A DNA stretch of 39,815 nucleotides from Candidatus Saliniplasma sp. (GTDB lineage Archaea > Thermoplasmatota > Thermoplasmata > Halarchaeoplasmatales > Halarchaeoplasmataceae), in contig JBMCUO010000003.1 of NCBI GenBank assembly GCA_048622455.1, positions 1 to 39,815 of the forward strand, given 5' to 3'. The notes under the pieces are model-generated. The model made no database searches and was not told the origin of the DNA. It saw only the letters and a list, made by a program, of their open reading frames with translations. Positions 21,020 through 22,944 of this stretch are shown here, piece after piece (the first letter of the stretch is position 1; every line of letters begins with the position of its first letter). A program made the position numbers and the translations under genes.

Positions 21020-22944
21020 ATTATTCAAAGAATATGAAAAAGTCTATGGAAATTTTTGGCTTGCTAATATTTTTATCCATATTGGTATTTAGCATGATAC
21101 CCTTAGCAGAGTCACAAGAAGATATTTCACAAGGAAGAGTAGATATTTTACTCGATGGAGAAAATCTGGGTAATGAAACTGAAATATACATCCCAGATAC
21201 TGAAGCGGTTTCTAACAGAACCTTCCAACTAGGAGTTTCGATCTCGGGTAATCTGACTTATGATATAGAGCGAGTGAGATGGGAGTTCGGTGATGGTAGT
21301 GAAGTTGAATTTGAGGGTGAAGAAGTAGAGGGGATGAATGATTCACATGCTTTTGCCGCTCCTGAAGACGAAAGGACATATCAAGTAAATTTAACAGTCG
21401 AAGCTAATGGAAATGTTTACAGAGATTCATTGAAAATAAAAGCTATAACAGACACTAGAGGCACCTATCTGACTGCACTGGGTGCAGGGCTCGCTGTTGG
21501 TATAGCAGGTATGGGAGCTGGTATAGGTGTTGGGATAGCTGGTGCTGCAGGTGCAGGTACGATAGCTGAAAAACCAGAGAAATTCGGTAAGTGTTTGGTT
21601 TTCCAAGCGCTCCCGCAAACTCAAGCTATCTACGGACTTTTAGTAGCAGTTCTTTTGCTTCTTTTCACAGGTATAATCGGTACTGAAACTAATATACCTC
21701 TTTCTATAGGTGTCACTTCACTAGGTGTGGGCCTAGCAGTAGGTATAGCTGGATTATCAGCCATCGGCCAGGGTATAGCTGCTTCTGGAAGTATTGCAGC
21801 GTATTCTGAAAATGAAGATTTATTTGGAAAAGGAATGGTGTTTTCAGTACTACCCGAGACTCAGGCTATCTATGGTCTACTTGTCGGGATTCTTATAATG
21901 GTATTCACAGGATTATTGGGCGGAGCTCCTAAATTATTCATGGTTCAAGATAGTGCTATAGGAGTTAGCTTCGGTACGGTCGCTATTGGAGCTGGTTTGG
22001 CGGTAGGTATAGCAGGCTTATCAGGGATCGGTCAGGGAATAGCTGCTAGTGCAGGTATTGGGAGTGTTGCAGAAAGAGAAGACCTCTTTGGAAAAGGAAT
22101 GGTGTTTTCAGTACTGCCCGAGACCCAGGCTATCTATGGGATGTTAATAGCTATATTACTTATGGTGTCATCTGGATTGTTACAGGGTAATGTGGATGCT
22201 AAACTCTTTCAAATCGCATCCCAATTTGATATAATCAGTGTACAGAGTGTGGGACTTATCGCAGTCGGTGCAGGTTTAGCGGTAGGTATAGCAGGATTAT
22301 CAGGAATAGGTCAAGGAATAGCTGCTTCTAGTGGTATAGGGTGTGTCGCTGAGAAAGAAGAGATGTTTGGTAGAGCTATGGTCTTTTCAGTACTTCCCGA
22401 AACCCAAGCTATCTATGGCATGTTGATCGCGATTTTATTGATGGTGTCTACACCCTTACTTGGAGAAGTATCAGGTATACTGTTCTCTCTAGGACTGGTT
22501 GGAGTAGGTGCAGGTCTTGCTGTAGGTATAGCCGGTCTATCTGGAATTGGTCAGGGTATTGCTGCAGCTAGCGGTATAGCAACGGTGTCAGAGGATGAAA
22601 GTATGTTCGGAAAAGGAATGGTCTTCTCAGTACTTCCCGAAACCCAAGCCATCTATGGTCTTTTGATAGCTATCCTTTTGATGGTCTTTAGTGGGATATT
22701 GGGGACTGTAGCAGAGCCAACAACTACTTTACAGGGTATAGCGTCAGTTGGAGCCGGTATCGCAATAGGGATAGCAGGTGTTTCTGGGGTCGGACAAGGT
22801 ATCACATCTGGATCAGCCATTGCAGCGGTGTCCAAACGGGAAGATACATTTGGTAAAGGCATGATATTCAGTGTGATGTCAGAAACCTTTGCTATATTCG
22901 GATTGTTGATTGCTATCTTTATAATACTGTTTGCTTTGATGTGA
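21016..22944 (+). CDS. atpK: A/V-type ATP synthase rotor subunit K (c): signal peptide + PKD-like domain + six fused proteolipid hairpins
   Basis: Six GAGLAVGIAG..G[Q/V]G...FG[KR]....P[EQ]TQAIYG-type units, with Q201, E281, E369, E462, E542 and E623 at the ion-carrier position. N-terminal WEFGDG and TYQVNLTV motifs. The gene lies between atpI and atpE. Confidence 0.95.
   Translation: MNYSKNMKKSMEIFGLLIFLSILVFSMIPLAESQEDISQGRVDILLDGENLGNETEIYIPDTEAVSNRTFQLGVSISGNLTYDIERVRWEFGDGSEVEFEGEEVEGMNDSHAFAAPEDERTYQVNLTVEANGNVYRDSLKIKAITDTRGTYLTALGAGLAVGIAGMGAGIGVGIAGAAGAGTIAEKPEKFGKCLVFQALPQTQAIYGLLVAVLLLLFTGIIGTETNIPLSIGVTSLGVGLAVGIAGLSAIGQGIAASGSIAAYSENEDLFGKGMVFSVLPETQAIYGLLVGILIMVFTGLLGGAPKLFMVQDSAIGVSFGTVAIGAGLAVGIAGLSGIGQGIAASAGIGSVAEREDLFGKGMVFSVLPETQAIYGMLIAILLMVSSGLLQGNVDAKLFQIASQFDIISVQSVGLIAVGAGLAVGIAGLSGIGQGIAASSGIGCVAEKEEMFGRAMVFSVLPETQAIYGMLIAILLMVSTPLLGEVSGILFSLGLVGVGAGLAVGIAGLSGIGQGIAAASGIATVSEDESMFGKGMVFSVLPETQAIYGLLIAILLMVFSGILGTVAEPTTTLQGIASVGAGIAIGIAGVSGVGQGITSGSAIAAVSKREDTFGKGMIFSVMSETFAIFGLLIAIFIILFALM
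21823..22658 (+). repeat. Near-identical internal DNA repeats between atpK hairpins
   Basis: 21823-21875 vs 22087-22139: 53 nt, 2 mismatches. 22378-22418 vs 22618-22658: 41 nt, 2 mismatches. Confidence 0.85.

Follow-up and report, generated by a model that had tools for sequence, protein, structure and literature searches.

We analysed a stretch of 39,815 nucleotides (nt) from Candidatus Saliniplasma sp. (GenBank assembly GCA_048622455.1, contig JBMCUO010000003.1, positions 1 to 39,815 of the forward strand), referred to below as the window at its full length, and report on atpK, the gene in it for the rotor subunit of an archaeal ATP synthase. Pfam profiles placed atpK in an operon with the gene order H-I-K-E-C-F-A-B at 18501-28215 (+), where it adjoins the gene for subunit I. 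Its open reading frame (ORF) covers 21016..22944 on the forward strand and encodes 642 amino acids (aa; P0001), and its ATG shares bases with the last codon of atpI, a stop codon that ends at 21019 (ATGA). The product is, as assigned from its profile matches, the rotor proteolipid (subunit K/c) of an A-type (A1AO) ATP synthase: Pfam reported six ATP-synt_C (PF00137) stretches (E 3.3e-104; 341.6 bits, cut-off 24), and the NCBIfam equivalogs for V-type ATP synthase subunit K (NF011483/NF004913) gave 511.5 bits (cut-off 188) and 507 bits (cut-off 211). It was the sole c gene found in the assembled genome (G000, 122 contigs binned from a short-read metagenome, with a completeness of 66%).

An earlier note on this DNA, made from the letters alone, had described 21456..22944 as six tandem hairpins with five complete Na+ sites per chain. 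That stretch lies entirely within atpK, and the six hairpins were borne out by the six Pfam stretches. The start that it gave was too late: codon 147 ends with base 21456, the hairpin part begins at 21457 and runs to the stop codon at 22942-22944, and the ORF begins 441 nt further upstream, so that the first 147 codons, with a predicted signal peptide and a PKD ectodomain, had been overlooked. The parts of the gene are as follows.

21016..22944 (+): atpK, predicted signal peptide, PKD ectodomain and six c hairpins (Pfam, NCBIfam)
21016..21114 (+), residues 1 to ~33: predicted Sec-type signal peptide, with a basic n-region, hydrophobic IFGLLIFLSILVFSMI and then PLAES/Q
21115..21456 (+), residues ~34-147: PKD-like beta-sandwich, predicted extracellular (Pfam PKD_4, AlphaFold2 model, Foldseek)
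21457..21675 (+), residues 148-220: hairpin 1, no carboxylate (Q201) and no inner Gln (V172); would donate L199/T202/Q203/Y206 to site 1
21697..21915 (+), residues 228-300: hairpin 2, Q252 and E281 would complete site 1; L279/T282/Q283/Y286 to site 2
21961..22179 (+), residues 316-388: hairpin 3, Q340 and E369 would complete site 2; L367/T370/Q371/Y374 to site 3
22240..22458 (+), residues 409-481: hairpin 4, Q433 and E462 would complete site 3; L460/T463/Q464/Y467 to site 4
22480..22698 (+), residues 489-561: hairpin 5, Q513 and E542 would complete site 4; L540/T543/Q544/Y547 to site 5
22723..22941 (+), residues 570-642: hairpin 6, Q594 and E623 would complete site 5; donor face degenerate (T624 kept; F625 and F628 replace Q and Y)

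Hairpin array and ion sites

All motifs on which the earlier note had built were present where it had placed them. The outer helices carry PQTQAIY at residue 200, PETQAIY at 280, 368, 461 and 541, and SETFAIF at 622, and the inner helices carry GIGVG at 169, AIGQG at ~249-253, GIGQG at 337, 430 and 510, and GVGQG at 591. The outer-helix Glu is thus found in hairpins 2-6 (E281, E369, E462, E542 and E623), and hairpin 1 has Q201 in the Glu position, as do the first hairpins of NtpK-type and Methanocaldococcus jannaschii-type subunits.

For the Enterococcus hirae subunit NtpK, the available text of PMC2359735 gives Glu139, Gln110, Thr64, the Leu61 backbone and Gln65 as Na+ ligands, with Tyr68 supporting the Glu. 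NtpK (2BL2) was the best solved match to the window protein both by sequence, where hairpins 1 and 2 together aligned with the whole of it (HMMER, E 8.5e-17), and by fold, where it was recovered by Foldseek with the membrane part of an AlphaFold2 model (TMt 0.88) along with eukaryotic V-ATPase c subunits. The model (mean pLDDT 79.6, pTM 0.79) contained beta strands at residues 41-145 and 12 membrane helices. L61/T64/Q65/Y68 of NtpK aligned with L199/T202/Q203/Y206 of hairpin 1, and Q110/E139 with Q252/E281 of hairpin 2, so that hairpins 1 and 2 reproduce the whole NtpK site; the same six ligand residues are found again at each of the interfaces 2-3, 3-4, 4-5 and 5-6. The 6-to-1 seam retains T624 alone, the other side-chain ligands Q, Y, Q and E being replaced by F625, F628, V172 and Q201, respectively. 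Since V172 and Q201 of hairpin 1 replace the Gln and Glu, the seam between chains has no carboxylate. Every ligand position and both seam substitutions (V172 and Q201) were invariant in 33/33 aligned relatives (alignment A1). The claim of five complete sites per chain with a dead 6-to-1 seam therefore holds on alignment to the NtpK ligand set, and five Na+-type sites and one dead seam per chain are well supported by these motifs. That the five sites are specific for Na+ would follow from the same likeness.

Comparison with NtpK and with M. jannaschii AtpK, the two references that the earlier note had proposed, gave the NtpK ligand set five times over and, for AtpK, the same scheme of first, middle and last hairpins. 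M. jannaschii AtpK (P0237, 220 aa, 'triplicated') reads A/PQTQ..Y, Q/PETQ..Y and Q/PETF..F, which is the scheme of the window with n-1 sites, and is 55% identical to the window protein over the aligned part. It has three hairpins and two sites, where the window protein has six and five, and it lacks a signal peptide or ectodomain, its first hairpin beginning at residue 8. Hairpin 1 of the window protein resembles hairpin 1 of NtpK, and its hairpin 6 resembles NtpK hairpin 2; the window protein places four 'complete' hairpins between these two end types and so has five sites in six hairpins, whereas NtpK has one site in two hairpins and no ectodomain. On these alignments, the gene belongs clearly to the K/c family and follows the M. 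jannaschii-type design.

Published archaeal c subunits have 1, 2, 3 or 13 hairpins, as the earlier note had it, according to the accessible parts of PMC9171764 and PMC2359735, and a 2026 preprint states, in the part available, that the hairpin number 'can vary widely', citing Methanopyrus kandleri. The M. kandleri AtpK has 1021 aa and 13 hairpins and was deduced to be a monomeric rotor (Lolkema & Boekema 2003, as cited in the available text of PMC2359735). It is likewise a single multi-hairpin chain with Na+-type motifs, and a close relative (P0013, Methanopyrus sp.) was among our homologues; it holds the whole ring in one chain with Glu in every hairpin, whereas the window protein would supply half a ring and has a dead first hairpin and a PKD domain. 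Searchable literature, to which most subscription journals, including the main archaeal ATP synthase reviews, do not belong, contained no description of six-hairpin or PKD-fused c subunits.

N-terminal ectodomain

The layout of n-, h- and c-regions and the motif P-x-A-x-x-Q were common to those relatives that reach the N-terminus in alignment A1, and residues 5-26 formed a helix of low confidence in the AlphaFold2 model. The predicted signal peptide would be cleaved after export; alternatively, it may be retained as an N-terminal anchor. For the domain that follows, the PKD class was assigned on the basis of a PF18911/PF00801 beta-sandwich with a W-x-F-G-D-G motif, with agreement among profile, strands and Foldseek, and with W89 invariant in alignment A1. 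Pfam matched PKD_4 at residues 60-132 (E 3.6e-6) with 27.4 bits, barely above the cut-off of 27, and the relatives P0058 and P0067 scored 48-55 bits. Foldseek searches with the ectodomain returned PKD domains (1l0q, 4tn9 and 4jrw; TMt 0.73-0.75 for 4tn9 and 4jrw).

The N-terminus of a hairpin in c/K subunits lies on the non-cytoplasmic side, and therefore the PKD domain must be extracellular. Its composition is acidic (26 D+E, 8 K+R), and it contains five N-x-S/T sequons (N53, N67, N79, N108 and N125), compared with zero in the 495 hairpin residues; going by these sequons, it is probably glycosylated. Being tethered by few residues to the first inner helix, the domain would sit at the outer mouth of the ring and rotate with it, which raises the question of what role a folded, probably glycosylated domain has on a rotating part. 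Protein mass on the non-cytoplasmic face of a c-ring, near its axis, is also found in the eukaryotic V-ATPase, where it is provided by Voa1, ATP6AP1/Ac45 and ATP6AP2; these are separate polypeptides with their own membrane helices, whereas the window domain is fused to the proteolipid, and no homology is implied. For the rotor of any rotary ATPase, a covalent spinning ectodomain was not described in the searchable literature.

Extensions ahead of hairpin 1 differ among relatives. One six-hairpin protein (P0053, from G012; locus L035, ORF 2272-4722) has ~300 residues there, with a sub-threshold SH3-like match as the sole match and no PKD domain by Pfam. The ectodomain varies in size and kind. 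Ten further K chains with 12 or 13 hairpins (8 in one of them), P0008, P0014, P0017-P0019, P0022, P0029, P0031, P0032 and P0062, whose named sources are Nanoarchaeota/Nanobdellota, carry N-terminal tails of 44-90 residues with 2-7 N-x-S/T sequons and without a hydrophobic signal. The tails of these chains look like another outside-facing rotor extension, to go by their sequons and position.

Hairpin number in relatives and ring size

To survey hairpin number among relatives, a further step that the earlier note had suggested, 44 genomes of the family (G000 included) were searched, and hairpins could be counted in 34 of them. Their numbers were 3, 4, 6 or 12, distributed as follows.

3 hairpins: 1 genome (G052)
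4 hairpins: 13 genomes (in G022 and G059 the N-terminal domain is cut by the contig end, with all four hairpins present)
6 hairpins: 16 genomes
12 hairpins: 4 genomes (G002, G013, G015 and G021)
Cut or split over contigs: 4 genomes (G007, G009, G023 and G050)
No match or only a weak one: 6 genomes (completeness 66-92%)

All readable counts (34/34) divide 12. The four 12-hairpin chains reach that number by three routes: those of G013 and G015 have a 6+6 pattern in which the internal seam is kept, with 10 sites; that of G021 has a 6+3+3 pattern with 9 sites; and that of G002 (L027, ORF 2853-6422) has an amplified middle with 11 sites and a longer ectodomain, its repeats reaching 82% DNA identity with a longest exact common word of 65 nt. 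At least 5 changes of hairpin number were required on a tree of the C-terminal part of atpI, whose 36 rows comprised 32 family members and 4 members of other families, with a very long branch leading to one of the outgroup rows. In these sequences, hairpin number is labile and has repeatedly landed on divisors of 12, in genomes that are not fully independent.

A separate group of ORFs of ~250-270 aa, 28-37% identical to parts of the K protein, was observed in G001, G003, G006, G013, G015-G018, G022 and G033, and some of them gave additional weak PF00137 matches in the census; the window's own genome has an ORF of the same identity range at G000:C8:26380-26934, with an in-frame TGA.

Two copies of residues 148-642 were modelled together with ESMFold2, which gave a score of 0.59 compared with 0.00 for the best of 3 controls; the mark used for such models was reached by 20/30 proteins solved as same-chain pairs and by 1/23 solved as single chains. 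Runs agreed in at least 98% of contacts, with a partner pLDDT of at least 82. Hairpin 6 of each chain contacted hairpin 1 of the other, and since hairpins 1 and 6 of both copies lie in the interface, the modelled ring is closed. The earlier note had left open a dimer or a trimer ring. The census and the two-copy model together favour its dimer; with a little more than moderate confidence, we take a ring of two chains, which would have 12 hairpins and bind 10 Na+ (3.3 per ATP), to be the likeliest arrangement.

Beyond the family, hairpins were counted with a purpose-built hairpin hidden Markov model in 120 listed homologues of 353-1124 residues, taken from 242 with E <= 1e-10. The listed proteins divided into the following classes.

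4 hairpins: 6 of 120
5 hairpins: 3 of 120
6 hairpins: 68 of 120
7 hairpins: 5 of 120
8 hairpins: 4 of 120
9 hairpins: 3 of 120
10 hairpins: 2 of 120
11 hairpins: 1 of 120
12 hairpins: 13 of 120
13 hairpins: 15 of 120

The exact ligand pattern of the window, V/PQTQ..Y, (Q/PETQ..Y) x4, Q/SETF..F, was found in 62 of the 68 six-hairpin homologues listed. Six-hairpin forms without an N-terminal extension occurred in cultured Methanomicrobiales (Methanofollis fontis, Methanocalculus taiwanensis and Methanomicrobium sp. W14) and in Undinarchaeales, going by the names given in the records, and at least 100 residues preceded hairpin 1 in 44 of the 120 (6 with 4 hairpins, 1 with 5, 34 with 6 and 3 with 12), all of those with a name being Thermoplasmatota. 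Individual hairpins of the window paired with those of Methanomicrobiales, Undinarchaeales and Methanopyrus at the first and last positions only, and within the family at positions 1, 2, 5 and 6. Judged on these patterns, 'n hairpins, n-1 sites' is a general design, of which six is the commonest large form among the matches listed, and atpK is an ordinary example of an architecture that occurs widely and is not special to the window's genome. The six-hairpin design is thus common in databases and little described in print.

Two variants of the ion site were observed among the homologues. Three proteins (P0102, P0107 and P0121, one of them named as from Methanolinea sp.) have six hairpins in which Cys replaces Pro before the Glu (CETQ..Y) in hairpins 2-5. 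Among 8 homologues longer than the listed range, the largest chains had 12, 13 or 15 hairpins; P0246-P0249 (Promethearchaeota, 1135-1147 aa) are single-chain K proteins of 15 hairpins with Glu in all of them (AEAL..Y) and no dead seam, and their site, which lacks the inner Gln and the Thr/Gln donors, looks like a proton-type one.

Taking these results together, we favour with moderate confidence a Na+-coupled A1AO rotor whose K chain consists of a signal peptide, an external PKD domain and six hairpins, and whose ring is made of two chains and 12 hairpins. At each internal interface, hairpin i would give the Leu carbonyl, Thr, Gln and the supporting Tyr, and hairpin i+1 would give Gln and Glu. 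Two chains would together make a closed ring of 12 hairpins, with 10 Na+ sites and with its two dead seams 180 degrees apart, and 10 Na+ per turn would correspond to 3.3 per ATP. A precedent for unevenly spaced sites is the hybrid F-type c-ring of Acetobacterium woodii (4BEM, also a PDB match here), which has one position without a site: it combines nine one-hairpin c subunits with one V-type c subunit that has a single site, and is a working Na+ rotor (PMC9171764, available part). That ring is F-type, assembled from separate gene products, with one gap and no ectodomain, whereas the ring of the window would have two gaps.

More tentatively, and with less than even confidence, the family as a whole may keep a 12-hairpin frame and shift gear through the number of chains and seams, with each ring carrying 1-4 glycosylated PKD domains that spin outside the cell. 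The Na+ load per turn would then be 8 for a ring of four 3-hairpin chains; 9 for three 4-hairpin chains or one 6+3+3 chain; 10 for two 6-hairpin chains, as in the window, or one 6+6 chain; and 11 for one 12-hairpin chain with an amplified middle. Such a series would span 2.67-3.67 Na+ per ATP, rising by one third at each step and leaving stator and stalk untouched. At a phosphorylation potential of 50-60 kJ/mol, the driving force required would by our arithmetic be ~194-233 mV for 8 sites, ~155-187 mV for 10 and ~141-170 mV for 11, and the higher site number may be of advantage at low driving force, as the earlier note had supposed. The number of ions per ATP fixes the lowest membrane potential at which ATP can be made, which matters near the thermodynamic limit. 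The 3-, 4-, 6- and 12-hairpin relatives would form a natural series in which the ion/ATP ratio changes and the rest of the enzyme is nearly constant, making the relation of site number to threshold driving force directly testable. Three features look new against the published record: a half-ring of six hairpins, an ectodomain fused to it, and a family series on an apparent 12-hairpin frame. Six-hairpin half-rings fill part of the gap between the published 3 and 13 hairpins.

Several observations weigh against this picture. The PKD_4 match of the window protein clears its cut-off by a narrow margin. The genomes behind the counts of 3, 4, 6 and 12 are related to each other, with only ~5 independent changes among them, and G002 is placed in the genus of the window while its atpI groups with another genus, which suggests that its operon contig was mis-binned or that the operon was transferred. 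The complex model was given exactly two copies, and its pass may reflect the model's memory of solved c-rings. Chains of 5, 7, 8, 9 and 10 hairpins exist, and a ring of 12 is accordingly not universal: five-hairpin chains are P0052, which has a PKD domain and lies on a contig of 2.5 kb, and P0110 and P0113, both without PKD, and the seven-hairpin chains P0041, P0042 and P0057 have a 4+3 pattern. Since five-hairpin chains cannot form a ring of 12, ring size is not fixed across archaea. Finally, where A/V-type rings built of two-hairpin subunits have been solved, they contain 20 hairpins (E. hirae K10, the NtpK ring being of ten subunits), and larger rings are physically possible.

Alternative readings and operon context

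The alternative that survives best accepts the ring as described and holds that, in a haloalkaliphile living by fermentation, the enzyme normally runs backwards and spends ATP to extrude Na+, as the E. hirae V-ATPase does. NtpK, the closest solved relative, belongs to such a Na+ pump; the order degrades carbohydrates and organic acids and is probably 'salt-in' (PMC11332174, available part); and no Rnf was found in the genome, which at 66% completeness says little. Against this, no second rotary ATPase was found in the assembled genome, three antiporter-like subunits of the Mrp/Mbh/Nuo type are present that could build an ion gradient, the same portion of PMC11332174 also mentions use of CO and H2 for energy, and A-type enzymes with Na+ motifs synthesize ATP (PMC9171764, in the text available). 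On balance, we regard habitual pumping as rather unlikely, though it is the likeliest of the alternatives.

Less probable still is a ring of the same chain in at least three copies, giving 18 hairpins and 15 Na+ (5 per ATP), or a ring size that varies among relatives. The 20-hairpin rings mentioned above indicate that A/V-type stators tolerate large rings, chains of 5, 7, 8, 9 and 10 hairpins occur among the listed homologues (metagenome proteins), and the complex model covered two copies only. On the other side stand the divisibility of every readable family count and the closure of the modelled ring by two copies; moreover, the single-chain forms of the family end at 12 hairpins by all three routes, and such a chain cannot form an 18-ring. 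As weak evidence, no 18- or 24-hairpin chain was present among the 8 longer homologues.

Compared with the Na+-coupled two-chain rotor that we prefer, a rotor that, for all its Na+-type motif, carries H+ in its sites, alone or along with Na+, seems improbable to a somewhat greater degree than the larger ring. Ion specificity is read here from motifs, and promiscuous A-type enzymes have been reported; the five NtpK ligands and the supporting Tyr are nevertheless all present and invariant, and the high pH and high Na+ of a soda lake would disfavour H+ coupling. The closest named K proteins, 90-91% identical, are from Candidatus Saliniplasma metagenome-assembled genomes, and the available text of PMC11332174 assigns the genus Candidatus Saliniplasma, described from a soda-saline lake, to an order of Thermoplasmatota. 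A habitat of high pH and high Na+ makes Na+ coupling sensible.

That the six-hairpin array is a repeat-expansion artefact of assembly, or the N-terminal domain a wrongly extended ORF, can be dismissed as very improbable, even though the window comes from a short-read metagenome bin, one gene caller began the protein at M27 and, for relatives, some callers took in just the last three hairpins, because the hairpins are just 53-74% identical in DNA, with unequal spacing and a longest exact common word of 29 nt, and the same architecture recurs in the 16 six-hairpin family genomes and the 68 listed homologues. Tandem Repeats Finder reported no DNA-level tandem array in atpK. G001, G003 and G004, of the same genus, encode the same six-hairpin protein at 91-92% identity. 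Contigs from four sequencing runs (X1, X2, X3 and X5, two studies in all) were compared with the window: one 14,527-nt contig of X1, a run that is possibly the source of the window and hence not independent, covers atpK without a difference, and short contigs of X2, X3 and X5, which leave parts of the stretch uncovered, contain no indel or joint. An assembly artefact was rejected on these grounds. A start at M27 (window position 21094), inside the signal peptide, as in the database entry for the window's own protein (P0006, 616 aa), was rejected because the hydrophobic N-terminus upstream of M27 and the cleavage-type motif are conserved in relatives and because of the ATGA overlap with atpI.

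Some relatives are also found in public records as 'V-type ATP synthase subunit K' with lengths between 239 and 248 aa (P0125, P0149, P0150 and P0170), entries with internal-Met starts that cover the last three hairpins only. This disagreement of gene callers on starts hides the architecture in public annotation.

The other genes of the operon, assigned with Pfam unless stated, are given below.

18501..18869 (+): atpH, peripheral stalk subunit H, first operon gene; weak matches only, supported by operon position
18890..21019 (+): atpI, stator subunit a/I (Pfam V_ATPase_I, E 3.4e-20)
22946-23545 (+): atpE
23546-24682 (+): atpC/d
24679-25014 (+): atpF
25019-26824 (+): atpA
26824-28215 (+): atpB

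For atpH, the NCBIfam models of subunit H (E 1.1e-6) and AhaH (E 1.5e-4) were both under cut-off, and Pfam V-ATPase_G_2 gave E 0.0055. The NCBIfam model of V-type ATP synthase subunit I matched atpI with E 1.1e-171, under its equivalog cut-off. The atpD gene lies outside the operon, on another contig of the same genome (G000:C6:10145-10714; ATP-synt_D, E 5.9e-60).

Directly 3' of atpB, a 183-aa ORF at 28246-28797 (-) was without a Pfam or NCBIfam match. Elsewhere in the window are two very large ORFs, both probably for surface proteins: one of 1478 aa at 313-4749 (+) with a bacterial Ig domain (Big_9), and one of 1803 aa at 9919-15330 (-) with FG-GAP repeats.

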